Source: Escherichia coli (lineage in GTDB: Bacteria; Pseudomonadota; Gammaproteobacteria; Enterobacterales; Enterobacteriaceae). From it: 10,032 bases of DNA. The stretch lies in NCBI RefSeq assembly GCF_036507355.1, contig NZ_AP027880.1. One strand, written 5' to 3'. The notes under the pieces were generated by a model. The model did not search any database and had not been told where the DNA came from. It saw nothing but the letters and a program-made list of their open reading frames with translations. Positions 1,712 to 6,188 of this stretch are shown in pieces; position 1 is the first letter of the stretch, and every line of letters starts with the position of its first letter. The position numbers and the translations under genes are program-made.

Positions 1712-1947
1712 CACAAGATAAGTGGCTGGCCGAACGGCTGGCATACCTGCGCGGCTTGAAGGCTCCCAGCGATCAACAGCGCCTGCTGCTGATGCTGGCC
1801 GACAAGCCCGACCGCACCGCCGACGCCGTCCGCATCATCAACGCCGAGAAGGCCGCCGAGAGGAAGGCCCGTCCGACGATCTGCCGACCCGCATCACCCT
1901 GCCCAAGTAAGGCCGTAGCCGCTTCGCGGTGCCTTCGGCAGCCTTGA
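1708..1947 (+). CDS. Small hypothetical protein (MTQDKWLAERLAYLRGLKAPSDQQRLLLMLADKPDRTADAVRIINAEKAAERKA…); C-terminal extent uncertain (possible frameshift, alternative stop at 1910)
   Basis: ATG at 1708 overlaps the relE-like stop. A diverged paralogous start (MTQNKWLNERLAYIRGLKAPNDH…) occurs at 8792, with mostly synonymous third-position differences over the first ~28 codons. The track ORF 1675..1947 is over-extended upstream. Confidence 0.45.
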   Translation: MTQDKWLAERLAYLRGLKAPSDQQRLLLMLADKPDRTADAVRIINAEKAAERKARPTICRPASPCPSKAVAASRCLRQP

Positions 1948-2023
1948 CCCTTCCCCTACGCTCAAAACGCGCTGTAGGCCCTTCTACGGGCCTTGGCGAC
2001 CCCTTCCCTTCCTGATTGCCGAA

Positions 2024-2078
2024 GCCGGAGGGGGAGCCGCCGCCGCAGGCGGTGGGGGAACCCCGCAGGGGTGCCCCA
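2024..2078. repeat. 55-bp GC-rich direct repeat, copy 1 (identical to 6089..6143); short hairpin-forming subunits
   Basis: gccggagggggagccgccgccgcaggcggtgggggaaccccgcaggggtgcccca is identical at both loci. Homology extends about 5-10 bp upstream (gatt…) with a 5-bp indel. Confidence 0.9.
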
Positions 2079-2098
2079 TGTCCTTGTCGCAGCAGCGT

Positions 2099-2170
2099 TT
2101 TCCACAGGTTGTGGCGGCCAATTACAGGTTTAGATTTATAGGATTCTTTTTTTAAAGGCTTAACCTATCG
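2099..2170. promoter_or_regulatory. oriV AT-rich region with a DnaA-box-like sequence
   Basis: TTTTCCACA at 2099..2107 (8/9 match to TTATCCACA), followed by an AT-rich stretch (ttacaggtttagatttataggattctttttttaaagg) immediately before the iterons. Confidence 0.55.
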
Positions 2171-2175
2171 GTTTA

Positions 2176-2284
2176 GGGGGGGTCCGATTTAACGGGAAAA
2201 AGGGGGTCCGATTTAACGTGGATAAGTACCCTTGGGGGGGTCCGATTTATCGAGGTGGGGGGGTCCGATTTAACGTGGATAAGT
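2176..2284. repeat. oriV iterons: four direct repeats of GGGGG(GG)TCCGATTTAACG, two extended by CGTGGATAA (DnaA-box-like); a fifth degenerate copy at 2397..2414
   Basis: TCCGATTTAACG/TCCGATTTATCG cores start at 2183, 2207, 2241 and 2264 (spacing 24/34/23 bp). cgtggataa at 2217..2225 and 2274..2282. Located directly downstream of the initiator gene, as in pVS1-type replicons. Confidence 0.85.
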
Positions 2285-2446
2285 GGCGCTATCGACAGGG
2301 TTGTGCACCGTTTTGGTCCCGCTGGGGTTTTCGGACACTTCCAGAGACATAAAACCCCGGAGATTCAATGCGTTGCACACGAATCGCCGGGGTCTAGGGG
2401 GGGCCGATCTAACGACACGTTTGTCGGACACTTCAAGGGGTTAGCG

Positions 2447-3442
2447 TTACTCGGTCGGACCGCCCTTGTAAGAGATCGGCGGCGGGGAACCGAGCAGCAG
2501 GACGCCGCCCGTGACCGGCTTCACCTTGGCCTGCGGATAGACGGCCAGAACCTTCTTGAGGGCCGGCACAAACTTCTTCTTGAAGTCCTTGTCAGCATCC
2601 TTGCCGGTGTACTCCTGCGCGAACTGCTCGCGCAGAGACTTCCAGTGCAAAGTGACGCCGCGTCCCTCGATGCGATGCAGCCGGTGGGCCAGCCAAGCGT
2701 AGACATCGAGCGCCAGCGCCGAACCTTTCAGGGCCATCAGGGCGCGGTTGTCGAGCGGTACGGCGCTTTGCATCAGTGACGTGAAATAGCCCTCGGACAA
2801 CACCATCGTGCCCGGCCATAGCGCCCGCTGCTTGGTGTCGCGGTTCGCCATCCATGCGTCGAACTGCTCGACCGGCTGTCCATTGAAGGTGCGGCCCTTG
2901 AAGCCAAGTTGCAGACGGCAGGCGGCCAGCGCGTGCATCTGCTTGCGCAGGGTCGCATAGCGCGCCCCTTGGTCGTCCAAGCCCATCAGGCTAAGGAACT
3001 CGGCCGCGCTATCACCGATCTTGATTTCGCGCTCCTTGTTGCGCACGGCAAAGGTGGACACCCACGCCAGCGCCAGCCGGGGCATGACGCCATAGGGGAT
3101 CGGTTGCAGCACCGGCCCGTTGCCTTCGTCCAGATAACCGGCCTGCACGTTCACCCACGCGGCCCCGGACTGGCGCATGAACTCGCGCCCCTCGACCTTG
3201 GCGCGGGGCAAGCCGACCTGACAAAGCACGGCGTGAGTAAACGCCATGTCCTCGCCGCTCGGCGGGTTCGTGGCGATTTCGGCGGCCGCGTCGATCAGGT
3301 TTATCTTTTGGCGACTGATGAATGACAGGCTCTTATTGCTCTGCCCTTTAGATGCCGTAGCGTCGGCCGCCCGCTTAACCTCGCGCGGCACAATGTTGCC
3401 AAGCAGCGAACCGATGGGCTGGGGGCCGTTAGATTTGCTCAT
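2447..3442 (-). CDS. repA: Plasmid replication initiator protein (iteron-binding RepA; TrfA/pVS1-RepA-like family assignment tentative)
   Basis: 331-aa ORF ending 30 bp from the iteron cluster, co-directional with and immediately downstream of the parA-parG operon. GGAGAT RBS about 9 nt upstream of the ATG at 3442. Family call is from synteny and recalled motifs (…SALALDVYAWLAHRL…), not a search. Confidence 0.7.
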   Translation of the reverse strand: MSKSNGPQPIGSLLGNIVPREVKRAADATASKGQSNKSLSFISRQKINLIDAAAEIATNPPSGEDMAFTHAVLCQVGLPRAKVEGREFMRQSGAAWVNVQAGYLDEGNGPVLQPIPYGVMPRLALAWVSTFAVRNKEREIKIGDSAAEFLSLMGLDDQGARYATLRKQMHALAACRLQLGFKGRTFNGQPVEQFDAWMANRDTKQRALWPGTMVLSEGYFTSLMQSAVPLDNRALMALKGSALALDVYAWLAHRLHRIEGRGVTLHWKSLREQFAQEYTGKDADKDFKKKFVPALKKVLAVYPQAKVKPVTGGVLLLGSPPPISYKGGPTE

Positions 3443-3469
3443 AAGGCGATCTCCACCGGCATGGCCGGG

Positions 3470-3727
3470 CTAGTTATTGTGGCGCTGCTCGTATTCATCG
3501 AAGGCCAGCCGCAACAGCTCGTTTAGCTTGAGGTCGTGGGCCGCTGCGAACATGCGGAAACGTCGACGCAGCTCGGCCGACACGCGGAAATTGAGCGGCA
3601 CATTGTTCGCCGAGGCCTCGGCCTCGGCCTTCACCTTGGGGGTGCAGGTCGGCATGTCGGCAACCGGCGCGGCGCTGCCCTTCGTGGCAACAAGGCCGGT
3701 CAAATCAGCGGGCTTCTTGGTAGCCAT
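3470..3727 (-). CDS. parG: ParG-like ribbon-helix-helix partition protein (centromere-binding partner of ParA)
   Basis: 85 aa with a C-terminal RHH fold signature (LNFRVSAELRRRFRMFAAAHDLKLNELLRLAFDEY) and a flexible Ala/Lys-rich N-terminus. Its ATG (3725..3727) lies 1 nt from the parA stop. Confidence 0.75.
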   Translation of the reverse strand: MATKKPADLTGLVATKGSAAPVADMPTCTPKVKAEAEASANNVPLNFRVSAELRRRFRMFAAAHDLKLNELLRLAFDEYEQRHNN

Positions 3728-3728
3728 A

Positions 3729-4379
3729 TTAAACGGTTTCCTTCTTTTTGGTTATCTTCTTAGCGTTCATGCGTTCTTGCACGAAAGCTAAAAGCTGGGA
3801 GATTTCCTCGGCGCTGCGGCTCTTGGGGTCGCTCTCGCCTACGGTGCGGCCGTCCACCATCGAGGCGGCATAGTCCACGCGGTCATGCACGATGGCTGGG
3901 GCTACAGCCCCATGCGCGGACAAGGCGGCCACGGCCTGAACGGTAAGCCGCGCGGTCGGCTTGGCCTGCGTCACGGCGAAGGCGAAAGGCCGGCCGGTTT
4001 CCTGCGCAATGTCCACGGTGCTGCCTACGGCCCGCAGGTCGTGCGGGCTGGGCCGGGTCGGGATCAACACAAGGTCGGCCAGCTTCACCACGTCGCGGAT
4101 AGCCTCGGTGATGGCCGGCGGGGTGTCGATCACGGCCAGCTTGAAACCAGCCTCGGCCAGCGCCCGCAGCTTGGCGGGCAGCTCGGCCAGCGAGGCGGCG
4201 GCCAGTGCCGGGGTGTCGTCCTCGCGGGAGTTCCACCACGCCGAAAGTGACCCTTGCGGGTCAGTGTCGAGCAGGACCGCCGGGCCGGCTCCTGCCTGTT
4301 CGGCGGCAACCGCAAGGTGCGCCGCTAGGGTGGTTTTCCCGGCTCCCCCCTTCTGGCTTGCTAGAACAAGGATTTTCAC
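3729..4379 (-). CDS. parA: ParA-family partition ATPase (small type Ib Walker-type, 216 aa)
   Basis: Deviant Walker A MKILVLASQKGGAGKTT at the N-terminus. GTG start at 4379 with AGAGGG RBS 5 nt upstream. Followed by the RHH partner gene. Confidence 0.9.
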   Translation of the reverse strand: MKILVLASQKGGAGKTTLAAHLAVAAEQAGAGPAVLLDTDPQGSLSAWWNSREDDTPALAAASLAELPAKLRALAEAGFKLAVIDTPPAITEAIRDVVKLADLVLIPTRPSPHDLRAVGSTVDIAQETGRPFAFAVTQAKPTARLTVQAVAALSAHGAVAPAIVHDRVDYAASMVDGRTVGESDPKSRSAEEISQLLAFVQERMNAKKITKKKETV

Positions 4380-4454
4380 ATGCGCCCTCTTGATTCGTGT
4401 TGGGACGCTTTAATGATAGCCAAAAAGCACGCATCTTGCAGAGTCTATTGAACA

Positions 4455-4474
4455 AAAGCACGCTTGCGTGCTTT
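4455..4474. promoter_or_regulatory. 20-bp palindrome aaagcacgc-tt-gcgtgcttt upstream of parA, with an extra half-site at 4424..4432; candidate par operator or centromere-like site
   Basis: Perfect 9-bp arms; the half-site aaagcacgc is repeated 31 bp away. Lies in the parA leader/promoter region. Confidence 0.45.
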
Positions 4475-4475
4475 C

Positions 4476-4526
4476 TGGATTGTGCAATCCAAAAGCCGGG
4501 GCGGCCGGCGCGTGTAATCGCAAACG
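4476..4526. repeat. Inverted repeat A (51 bp), perfect inverted copy of 5576..5626; contains palindromic core ggattgTGcaatcc and motif CGTGTAATCG
   Basis: The reverse complement of 5576..5626 is identical to 4476..4526 (checked base by base). Confidence 0.9.
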
Positions 4527-4557
4527 GGTAGGGAAGGGGAGGCCGGTTTCTGATGCC

Positions 4558-5190
4558 CTATGCCGCCGGAATCTGCCGGCGGGAGGCCCATATTCGTTTG
4601 ACCTGGCTCTCGCTGCATCCGGCCAGCCGGGCGGTTTCCGCGATGCTCGATCCGCCCTCACGCAAGGCCACGACGCGAGCGTGTAGCGCCCGGTTTGGTT
4701 TCCTACCTCTGTAGCGGCCGGCGGCCTTGGCAAGCTCTATGCCCTGCCGCTGCCGCTCGCGGCGGTCCTCGTAGTCGTCACGCGCCATCTGCAGGGCGAG
4801 GCGCAAGAGCATGTCTTGCACCGATTGCAGGACGATGCGGGCCACGCCCTCGGCCGTCTCGGTCAACTCTGACAGGTCCACCACGCCGGGCACGGCGAGC
4901 CGCGCGCCCTTGTCGCGGATCGCCTGCACAAGCTGCTCGGCCTCGGGCAAGGGCAGGCGGCTAATGCGGTCCATCTTCTCGGCAATGACAACCTCGCCGG
5001 CCTGCAAGTCCGCGATCATGCGCAACAGCTCGGGCCGGTCGGCGCGCGCGCCGGATGCCTTCTCACGATAGACGGCGGCCACGTAGTAGCCGGCCGCCTT
5101 CGCGCTCTCGATGATGGATTCTTGCCGGCGCACGTCCTGCTCGTCGGTGCTGACGCGGATATAGACCCGTGCGACCTTGGACGCTGCCAT
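4558..5190 (-). CDS. Small serine recombinase (resolvase/invertase family), about 211 aa
   Basis: N-terminal catalytic motif MAASKVARVYIRVSTDEQ and C-terminal HTH (SIAETARLAGCSESQVKRIW). Start placed at ATG 5188..5190 with AGGAGG 7 nt upstream; the track ORF (to 5310) is over-extended into the upstream gene. Confidence 0.85.
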   Translation of the reverse strand: MAASKVARVYIRVSTDEQDVRRQESIIESAKAAGYYVAAVYREKASGARADRPELLRMIADLQAGEVVIAEKMDRISRLPLPEAEQLVQAIRDKGARLAVPGVVDLSELTETAEGVARIVLQSVQDMLLRLALQMARDDYEDRRERQRQGIELAKAAGRYRGRKPNRALHARVVALREGGSSIAETARLAGCSESQVKRIWASRRQIPAA

Positions 5191-5201: not shown

Positions 5202-5456
5202 CTACCGGATGCTCGGCATTCCGGTGCCCCGGAACATGGCTTTCTGCTGGGCCGCCATCGCGTTCTTGCAATTGGGCGTGTCGGCCAGCTCGCCGGGGTT
5301 GTTCCGGCATTCCGCGATCTGCGCCTTACGCTCGTCGGGATGGTCGAGGAAATAGGCCACGTCATGCACGGGGCGGGCGTCGGCCGCTTCGTCGCTGCTG
5401 GCAGGATTGCAGGCCGTCAGCACGGCCACGGCGGCGAGCGTCATCACAAGGCGCAT
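5202..5456 (-). CDS. Small lipoprotein, EexN/TrbK-like (entry-exclusion family resemblance; tentative), 84 aa
   Basis: Lipoprotein signal peptide with lipobox (MRLVMTLAAVAVLTAC). Mature part has the two-Cys pattern …HPDERKAQIAECRNNPGELADTPNCKNA…. AAGGAG RBS 7 nt upstream of the ATG at 5456; ends 11 bp before the recombinase start (operon). Confidence 0.6.
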   Translation of the reverse strand: MRLVMTLAAVAVLTACNPASSDEAADARPVHDVAYFLDHPDERKAQIAECRNNPGELADTPNCKNAMAAQQKAMFRGTGMPSIR

Positions 5457-5487
5457 AGTTTCTCCTTTGGCGCAGTTGGGTATTCCT

Positions 5488-5530
5488 AAATGCGCCCAGC
5501 ATAGCAGCTAGGGCGCATTTGGTGAATCCG
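5488..5530 (-). promoter_or_regulatory. Candidate promoter with overlapping palindromic operator for the lipoprotein-recombinase operon
   Basis: On the minus strand, TTCACC-17 nt-TATGCT lies about 30 nt upstream of the lipoprotein ATG. It overlaps the perfect 10-bp inverted repeat aaatgcgccc…gggcgcattt (5488..5520). Confidence 0.4.
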
Positions 5531-5575
5531 CGATGCTATTGCGCTAGGCTCGCAAAGCCGATCCATCTGCGCCAG

Positions 5576-5626
5576 CGTTTGCGATTACACGCGCCGGCCG
5601 CCCCGGCTTTTGGATTGCACAATCCA
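5576..5626. repeat. Inverted repeat B (51 bp); here the core sits in a full 30-bp palindrome cggcttttGGATTGcaCAATCCaaaagccg (5603..5632), a candidate serine-recombinase crossover site
   Basis: Perfect inverted identity with 4476..4526. Two 14-bp arms around a central CA dinucleotide (TG in copy A), the geometry of resolvase/invertase site I. Confidence 0.6.
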
Positions 5627-5634
5627 AAAGCCGT

Positions 5635-5678
5635 GTTCGCGCTTCGCCGGGCCATCCTCGACGCGGCGAAGCGCGAAC
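5635..5678. other. Perfect 15-bp inverted repeat with 14-nt spacer (gttcgcgcttcgccg…cggcgaagcgcgaac); candidate accessory recombinase-binding subsite or structural hairpin next to the crossover site
   Basis: Seen directly in sequence; lies 3 bp beyond the 30-bp palindrome. Confidence 0.4.
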
Positions 5679-5707
5679 GCGAGGCCAGCGGCCAATAGGC
5701 GAAAGGT

Positions 5708-5734
5708 CGGCCGGCTCTGCCGGCCGGCTTTTTT
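5708..5734 (+). terminator. Terminator-like GC hairpin followed by T6 in the intergenic region
   Basis: ggccgg-ctctg-ccggcc then ggc tttttt. No plus-strand gene lies immediately upstream, so the role is unclear. Confidence 0.35.
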
Positions 5735-6088
5735 CATGGAATCGGATCCCGGTCGCCGGCCGGGGATTCCTTCAACGTGTAATCGGTCACGCTAGAAAGC
5801 CATAGGACGCGCTAGGAGCGCCGCACCGGCCGGGCCGCTACCTTCCCCCTCCCCTGCCCTAAAGAACGCCGCCACGGGCTGCCAGCGCAGCCGTAGGCGT
5901 ATCAGATTACACGTGCCCCCCGGCCTCTTTTGGTGCTTTCCACCTATCAGCCCGCAACCAGGTCAAAGGAGATCCACGACACTGGCCGCCAGCTCTCTTC
6001 CCTGCCGAGCCTGCCGGCCGGTAGGCCGGCCCATCGCCGGCGCAGCCGGCGCTACAAAACGCTTCGGCCGCTTGCGGCCGTCCGATTA

Positions 6089-6143
6089 GCCGGAGGGGGA
6101 GCCGCCGCCGCAGGCGGTGGGGGAACCCCGCAGGGGTGCCCCA
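6089..6143. repeat. 55-bp GC-rich direct repeat, copy 2 (identical to 2024..2078), immediately upstream of the Rep_3 initiator RBS
   Basis: Exact 55/55 identity with copy 1. Confidence 0.9.
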
Positions 6144-6188
6144 AGGGGGGCGACGTCGCGGAGGGCCGCAGGCCCGGAGGTTGTCAGG

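Follow-up and report, generated by a model that had tools for sequence, protein, structure and literature searches.

Plasmid replicons with an initiator of the RepA_C family form a group that is already known and common, with matches in 1090 plasmid records. Plasmids of the pNOR-2000/pAX22 type are related members with a broad host range (PMC6409357, PMC11411806). In IncN2 plasmids, 'repA and its iterons' have been annotated in silico (PMC5371602), and in related Xylella plasmids the role of RepA has been described as unknown and oriV was inferred in silico (PMC3522642). Our literature search for the close subgroup considered here returned in-silico annotations only and no experimental dissection of the origin, and the main text of the OriV-Finder paper does not mention RepA_C.

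The DNA analysed here (the window, a stretch of 10,032 nucleotides from Escherichia coli contig NZ_AP027880.1) is the reverse complement of nearly all of the E. coli plasmid p2017.17.01CC_2 (NZ_AP027824.1, 10,103 bp), to which it is 99.9 % identical over positions 2050-3500. Inside 2000-2518 the sole difference is one extra G in NZ_AP027824.1, located in the G-run of the fourth iteron. This run (2257-2263) is 7 G long in the window and 8 G long in NZ_AP027824.1; its length varies among iteron copies and relatives (5-10), and the differences may reflect real slippage or homopolymer sequencing error. With a probability of roughly 0.85, we consider positions 2098-2414 to be the oriV of an iteron-controlled theta replicon, whose initiator is the RepA_C-family protein encoded at 3442-2447 on the minus strand. 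The relevant features are as follows.

2098-2106, plus strand: distal DnaA box, TTTTCCACA (TGTGGAAAA on the rep strand), 8/9 to TTATCCACA, fitting TTWTNCACA
2107-2175, no strand: AT-rich block of 69 bp, putative DNA-unwinding element, 36 % G+C versus 63 % for the whole window
2176-2194, minus strand: iteron 1, the most distant from rep, then invariant CCCCCCTAAACC
2202-2218, minus strand: iteron 2, fused to TTATCCACG at 2217-2225
2217-2225 and 2274-2282: CGTGGATAA (TTATCCACG on the minus strand), 8/9 to TTATCCACA
2234-2252, minus strand: iteron 3, CGATAAATCGGACCCCCCC on the rep strand
2257-2275, minus strand: iteron 4, fused to the DnaA-box-like TTATCCACG at 2274-2282
2289-2297, minus strand: decayed DnaA-like box, TGTCGATAG (alignment A2, columns 189-200)
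2331-2341, no strand: TCGGACACTTC motif, copy a
2348-2393, minus strand: hairpin followed by UUUUAU, with arms at 2354-2366 and 2381-2393
2397-2414, minus strand: fifth iteron, isolated and degenerate, GGGGGGGCCGATCTAACG (CGTTAGATCGGCCCCCCC on the rep strand)
2424-2434, no strand: TCGGACACTTC motif, copy b, rep-proximal
2447-3442, minus strand: rep, RepA_C-family initiator of 331 aa (Pfam PF04796, 8.6e-20), stop codon at 2447-2449
3449-3454, minus strand: rep Shine-Dalgarno sequence, GGAGAT
3470-3727, minus strand: small ribbon-helix-helix (RHH) gene, ParG-like, 85-aa ORF (Pfam RHH_10, 7.4e-07)
3729-4379, minus strand: parA, which encodes a partition ATPase and leads the operon, 216-aa ORF (Pfam CbiA/AAA_31/VirC1)

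The first-pass annotation had placed parA, a ParG-like RHH gene and rep on one strand with iterons past the rep stop codon, an order that the ORFs and Pfam matches confirm, and the DnaA box, AT-rich block, four iterons and hairpin that it described are all present within 2098-2414. The four clustered iterons, GGGGGGGTCCGATTTAACG, are near-perfect repeats of 17-19 nt with start-to-start distances of 24, 34 and 23; three are identical across the 17-nt core and the remaining one differs by a single base. The window contains five matches to the 17-mer core with at most three mismatches, compared with 0.04 expected, and a count of five was reached in none of 200 shuffles. The fifth copy, which carries two changes relative to the cluster, sits between the rep stop codon and the hairpin. 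An earlier count of four iterons thus holds for the cluster but omits this degenerate copy, although the interval then given ended at 2414. No iteron-like operator was found near the start of rep or parA. Iteron-type theta replicons typically carry three or more directly repeated units, each about 17-22 bp long and following one another at about two or three turns of the helix; the window shows this arrangement, together with an AT-rich region adjoining the iterons and DnaA boxes that lie in the origin and are kept in relatives.

Across the whole 10 kb, only three sequences match TTATCCACA with at most one mismatch (0.74 expected), and all of them lie within 185 bp (2098-2282). Two are the TTATCCACG boxes, so that the proposed extension of two iterons by a sequence 8/9 identical to the DnaA box is borne out. 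The G+C content of the AT-rich block falls to 25 % in the sliding windows covering 2120-2169. The IHF consensus site WATCARNNNNTTR does not occur in the window. The box equivalent to the decayed one at 2289-2297 reads TGTGGATAG in pJB35, pAER-3367 and pMRCP1333.

Regions downstream of rep were compared among public plasmids (pAt2, pJB35, pAER-3367, a Cupriavidus plasmid, the IncN2 plasmid p7121-IMP, pMRCP1333 and Xylella pXF879-41) and contigs encoding a Rep 85-96 % identical to that of the window; AP027811.1 (L003) was left out as evidence because of its many homopolymer indels and fragmented rep annotation. Nine origins, with Rep proteins roughly 75-96 % identical, align over their full length on the rep strand (alignment A2), in the order stop codon, isolated iteron, hairpin, (A)CCCTGT(G/C)GATAGC, ACTTATCCACG fused to the first clustered iteron, three further iterons, CCCCCCTAAACC, the AT-rich block with CCTATA-AT, and (T)GTGGAAAA. 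The clustered iterons are spaced at 22-24, 32-34 and 23-24 across these origins. The junction of iteron 4 and TTATCCACG, ACTT-TCCACGT, is invariant in all nine and is present in the IncN2 and Xylella plasmids too; CCCCCCTAAACC, CCTATA-AT inside the AT-rich block and GTGGA-AA in the distal box are likewise invariant in the nine, and every family-invariant block is intact in the window. The TTATCCACG box of iteron 2 is kept in six of nine relatives. Fusion of TTATCCACG to the rep-proximal clustered iteron, together with a distal (T)GTGGAAAA past the AT-rich block, is seen in the window as well as in the relatives L008 and L010.

The iterons downstream of the rep stop codon follow the consensus CG(T/A)(T/G)A(A/G)ATC..C5-9, to which the window conforms and within which lineages vary, as exemplified by CGTGAAATCGGAC6-7 in the closest relatives versus CGTGAAATCGC7-8 in pJB35. 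In most lineages each plasmid has one iteron core; exceptions are pAt2, pAER-3367 and the window, where single copies deviate at one or two bases. The isolated iteron is found at the position of the fifth copy in eight of nine aligned relatives and reproduces the cluster core exactly in L012, L013, L014, pJB35 (L004) and L009. The more distant IncN2 p7121-IMP (Rep 71 % identical at the amino acid level) and Xylella pXF879-41 show the same consensus and a fused TTATCCACG, with five and seven iteron copies, respectively, and lack the parA-RHH operon.

The assignment of the initiator is supported by a Pfam RepA_C score of 72.2 bits (cut-off 26), PF04796 being the sole Pfam match of Rep; a search of NCBIfam with Rep gave no matching model. 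Among 8000 candidates scored, 2459 were homologues at E <= 1e-5, PF04796 was present in all 120 matches listed, and the family comprises 4172 cluster representatives at E <= 0.001. Neither the Rep sequence by itself nor the profile of the family gave a meaningful match in sequence searches of the PDB. An AlphaFold2 model built from 112 diverse family members (pLDDT 90.8, pTM 0.86) was matched by Foldseek to RctB domains 2-3 and to RepE54 (probability 1.0, TM <=0.61 on the target), the RepE54 structures being complexes with iteron DNA or with single strands of the DUE. Rep is thus predicted to have the tandem winged-helix (WH1-WH2) architecture of classical iteron initiators, from which the usual mechanism of such initiators can be inferred.

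The parA product matches the NCBIfam ParA_partition model (8.2e-48) with 162.6 bits, which lies under that model's curated cut-off of 180 bits, and the gene occupying the position of the RHH gene in the Cupriavidus relative is annotated as ParG. A scan for sigma-70-like promoters over 1900-4700 found none. A fragment spanning 2090-3450 cuts the rep Shine-Dalgarno sequence and has no promoter, and a failure of such a clone to replicate would therefore be uninformative.

The hairpin folds in context with -35 kcal/mol (z = -2.2) and predominates in the predicted RNA fold. Its stem is kept in close relatives, with almost no support from covariation as the sequences are too similar, and its U tract consists of 4 U. 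In L008, L015 and pJB35 this position is taken by hairpins of other sequence, two of the more distant hairpins having clear U-tracts. The element is, with moderate confidence, the probable intrinsic terminator of rep; known RNA families were sought in the origin and the rep 3' region, and none was found. The repeated TCGGACACTTC motif is also real, but its copies lie at 2331-2341 and 2424-2434 rather than at 2328-2338 and 2425-2435, as first reported (off by 3 and 1). The rep-proximal copy is kept as GTGTCCG(A/G) in L002, L012, L013 and L014, and the GTGTCCG(A/G) pair, which brackets the isolated iteron and the hairpin, is confined to the subgroup of the window. The possibility that TCGGACACTTC is an inverted half-iteron, serving as an operator for a Rep dimer, was considered, as it matches the window iteron at seven of eight positions; it is not supported, since pAt2 keeps the motif but has an iteron without GGAC.

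By analogy with RepE, pi, TrfA and pPS10 RepA, Rep monomers, each with two winged-helix domains, would occupy the four clustered iterons, whose spacings of 23-24 and 34 bp would correspond to about two and three helical turns. Host DnaA would presumably bind the distal TGTGGAAAA box and the TTATCCACG boxes abutting iterons 2 and 4. Rep and DnaA might then jointly melt the AT-rich block, the 69 bp of which separate the iterons from the distal box, with loading of the host helicase to follow. The transcript of parA, the RHH gene and rep most likely ends at the hairpin and U-tract (2393-2348, minus strand), ahead of the iteron cluster. In the RK2 plasmid, additional iterons lower the copy number. 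By analogy, the isolated fifth iteron, which lies in the rep 3' untranslated region, is most likely an extra Rep-binding site for copy-number control, which could operate through titration of Rep or through pairing with the cluster.

The most serious alternative is that the RepA_C origin is a relic, inactive or dispensable in its E. coli host, in a plasmid that arose by fusion of two replicons and now uses another initiator. The features that bear on it lie partly in the other arc of the plasmid.

2023-2078, no strand: GC-rich element of 56 nt next to the origin, repeated exactly and in direct orientation at 6088-6143, upstream of the Rep_3 gene
6117-6986, plus strand: gene for a Rep_3-family initiator (Rep3_N 4.3e-36, Rep3_C 2.6e-17)
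7079-8599, minus strand: MobA/MobL relaxase gene, adjoining the Rep_3 gene

The presence of this second initiator gene alongside the relaxase, in an arc set off from the RepA_C arc by exact 56-nt direct repeats, favours such a fusion, and it may be Rep_3 from which the plasmid actually replicates in E. coli. Between them, the 56-nt copies delimit two arcs of the plasmid, about 4.1 kb and 6.0 kb long. The element also adjoins the RepA_C origins of L009, L012 and L013, matches to small Rep_3 plasmids of Paracoccus and Nitrotoga begin at it, and it looks like the recombination point of the two-replicon fusion. In keeping with a relic, the degeneration of the fifth iteron and of one DnaA-like box is restricted to the lineage of the window, and of 5426 complete E. 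coli genomes only 1 has the origin. On the other hand, rep is intact, with a 331-aa product 96 % identical to that of the relative P0001, and neither the clustered iterons, of which three share the same 17-nt core and one deviates by a single base, nor the family-invariant blocks show decay. Moreover, 89 %-related plasmids seem to rely on the RepA_C replicon alone in enterobacteria; in P0003, a 13.3-kb contig from a public sequencing run (source name Salmonella RepA; Rep 89 %), RepA_C is the sole rep among the called genes. The surroundings of the Rep_3 gene showed no iteron-like repeats, and a search for a Rep_3 iteron array over 5450-6320, 6960-7120 and 8590-9080 gave none that is convincing. 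The only repeats observed near Rep_3 are copies of ACAGCGGGCA at 7000-7112. We regard the relic alternative as unlikely.

Other elements of the plasmid were also observed. Inverted repeats of 54 nt (4473-4526 and 5576-5629, 98 % complementary), each arm with the palindrome TTGGATTGTGCAATCCAA, flank a 1.05-kb segment with the gene for a serine recombinase and a small gene whose annotation is EexN-family lipoprotein; they could be paired res sites or the borders of an invertible segment. An autotransporter gene runs across the window ends (9087-10032 on to 1-1245) and encodes at least five to six tandem repeats of 156 nt (52 aa), 90-98 % identical, followed by the beta-domain (Pfam 3.4e-15). The autotransporter region is bracketed by two diverged copies of the beginning of a small ORF, at 1709-1790 (MTQDKWLAERLAYLRGLKAP...) and 8794-8875 (MTQNKWLNERLAYIRGLKAP...). 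At 1384-1711 lies a remnant toxin-antitoxin pair, in which a 47-aa antitoxin-like ORF (weak Unstab_antitox match) overlaps a 66-aa ParE-toxin ORF that ends at position 68 of the 89 of the profile and is probably truncated.

For the RepA_C cassette, a more far-reaching interpretation may be formulated, which we regard as speculative and rather doubtful. The rep-oriV cassette would represent an undescribed control layout, with a lone iteron in the rep 3' UTR before the terminator and DnaA boxes fused to specific iterons; Rep bound at the lone iteron would pair it with the cluster, at a distance of about 120-180 bp, and thereby determine the copy number or tie the transcription of rep to the firing of the origin. 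The lone iteron would have decayed in the window, possibly as selection was relaxed by the Rep_3 replicon fused at the shared GC-rich 56-nt element.

A second alternative is that the GGGGGTCCGATTTAACG repeats are the partition centromere or operator of the ParG-like RHH protein rather than initiator-binding iterons. ParA/RHH systems do employ arrays of short direct repeats, and the array lies in the same transcription-unit region as parA and the RHH gene. The comparison of pJB35 (L004, RepA_C) with pVIM_Pse-KSS435 (L007, RPA) nevertheless makes this reading very improbable. The two plasmids are 89 % identical over parA and the small ORF and 96 % identical from just past the origin onward, whereas the intervening stretch of about 1.4 kb, which comprises rep, the iterons, the AT-rich block and the distal DnaA box, shows no detectable similarity. 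As this cassette has been swapped while the shared backbone was kept, the repeats belong to Rep and not to the partition system; the pair is a clean natural replicon swap, in which the repeats move with the initiator as one exchangeable cassette. The same repeats are also present downstream of the RepA_C genes of IncN2 and Xylella plasmids, in which this par operon is missing, and they adjoin an AT-rich block and DnaA boxes. A better candidate for the ParA/RHH operator or centromere, separate from the iterons, is found at 4424-4474, directly upstream of parA, where AAAAGCACGC occurs twice (4424-4433 and 4454-4463) and GCGTGCTTT follows in inverted orientation at 4466-4474.

The first-pass annotation had also likened the locus to pVS1-type minimal replicons. 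As a representative of pVS1 we used pVIM_Pse-KSS435, which we take to be such on the basis of the oriV sequence of pVS1 binary vectors; this query matches the plasmid at 94.7 %, and its Rep has Arg at position 106, consistent with the published pVS1 R106H mutant. The layout of the window is the same as in pVIM_Pse-KSS435, where parA, a small ORF, rep, TGTGGATAG, four CGTACATTGGGAACC iterons, an AT-rich block, TGTGCATAA and GC-rich DNA follow one another, and the rep-oriV region of that plasmid fills the same slot of the backbone shared with RepA_C plasmids. However, its rep product (357 aa) belongs to the Pfam family RPA (PF10134, 1.8e-67) and not to PF04796, the window Rep has no sequence similarity to it (BLASTP E = 0.21; hhalign probability 0.3 %), and blastn of the window against this plasmid shows no similarity. 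Its iterons, at a regular 21-bp spacing, are unrelated to the CGTTAAATCGGACCCCCCC iterons of the window, and, unlike the window, it has no isolated fifth iteron and no iteron-fused box. In the literature on pVS1 iterons, we found no usable description of the origin. That the window holds a true pVS1 family member, with a homologous initiator and cross-reacting iterons, is the least probable of the readings considered and can be dismissed given the separate initiator families and unrelated iterons, despite the common layout and the backbone that both plasmid types share on either side of the cassette. The statement that the replicon 'works like pVS1' is thereby supported; its membership in the pVS1-type replicons is not.

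The resulting origin map, with its comparative support, applies to a widespread group that includes small enterobacterial plasmids, the pNOR-2000/pAX22-type carbapenemase plasmids and IncN2. Lineage-specific iterons may be used for the prediction of incompatibility and for plasmid typing; at present, the nearest E. coli record, taken as a whole plasmid, is typed by MOB-suite only as ColRNAI_rep_cluster_1998. The natural exchange of a rep-oriV module of about 1.4 kb between the pVS1 and RepA_C types shows that the module is exchangeable, which is useful in vector design. The current models of iteron plasmid replication are unchallenged by the origin described here.

Among known systems, the mini-F RepE and Vibrio cholerae chromosome 2 RctB replicons share with the window the tandem winged-helix fold of the initiator, predicted in the case of the window, and the combination of iterons with DnaA boxes and an AT-rich unwinding element. 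Nevertheless, the sequence identity of the window Rep to RepE and RctB is only 10-15 %, and the origin of the window lies downstream of rep and not upstream as in those replicons. IncN2 plasmids (p7121-IMP and the p271A group) are closer, with a RepA 71 % identical at the amino acid level and iterons of the form CGTTAAATC(G/A)CCCCCC downstream of repA. Like the window, they have TTATCCACG fused to the first iteron copy and an AT-rich block followed by TGTGGAAAA. Unlike the window, their five iterons are contiguous (spacing 22-24) with none isolated, the terminator directly follows the stop codon and no parA-RHH operon lies upstream.

The pNOR-2000/pAX22-type plasmids (MOB-suite rep_cluster_995; pJB35, pAER-3367) also encode RepA_C and are about 81-83 % identical to the window at the DNA level over rep. 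They have the same 1+4 iterons with spacings of 24, 33-34 and 22-23, the fused TTATCCACG, the AT-rich block and the distal GTGGAAAA. Their iterons, CGTGAAATCGCCCCCCC or CGTTAGATCAGACCCCCCC, differ from those of the window, another hairpin follows the isolated iteron, an intact TGTGGATAG precedes the cluster and the GTGTCCG pair is absent. A pMOS94 lineage was considered for the 81 % relatives and rejected, as the paper on that plasmid gives iterons TTCGTCACTCCAGGGACCG and an IncW-like Rep.

The closest systems are small RepA_C plasmids that carry traA/traCDG in Enterobacteriaceae, Pseudomonas and Agrobacterium (L012-L014; A. tumefaciens pAt2, NZ_CP048496.1), with Rep proteins 85-96 % identical to that of the window. 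The window lacks their traG/D/C module and has Rep_3, MobA and the autotransporter instead. The iteron core of L012-L014 is one base off that of the window in all copies (CGTGAAATCGGAC... vs CGTTAAATCGGAC...), and the fifth iteron, an exact cluster core in the small tra-bearing plasmids, is degenerate in the window. In other respects the correspondence is close, as these plasmids share with the window the resolvase-parA-RHH-rep-oriV order, the 1+4 iterons, the hairpin, the GTGTCCG pair, the AT-rich block, the TGTGGAAAA box and the GC-rich element.
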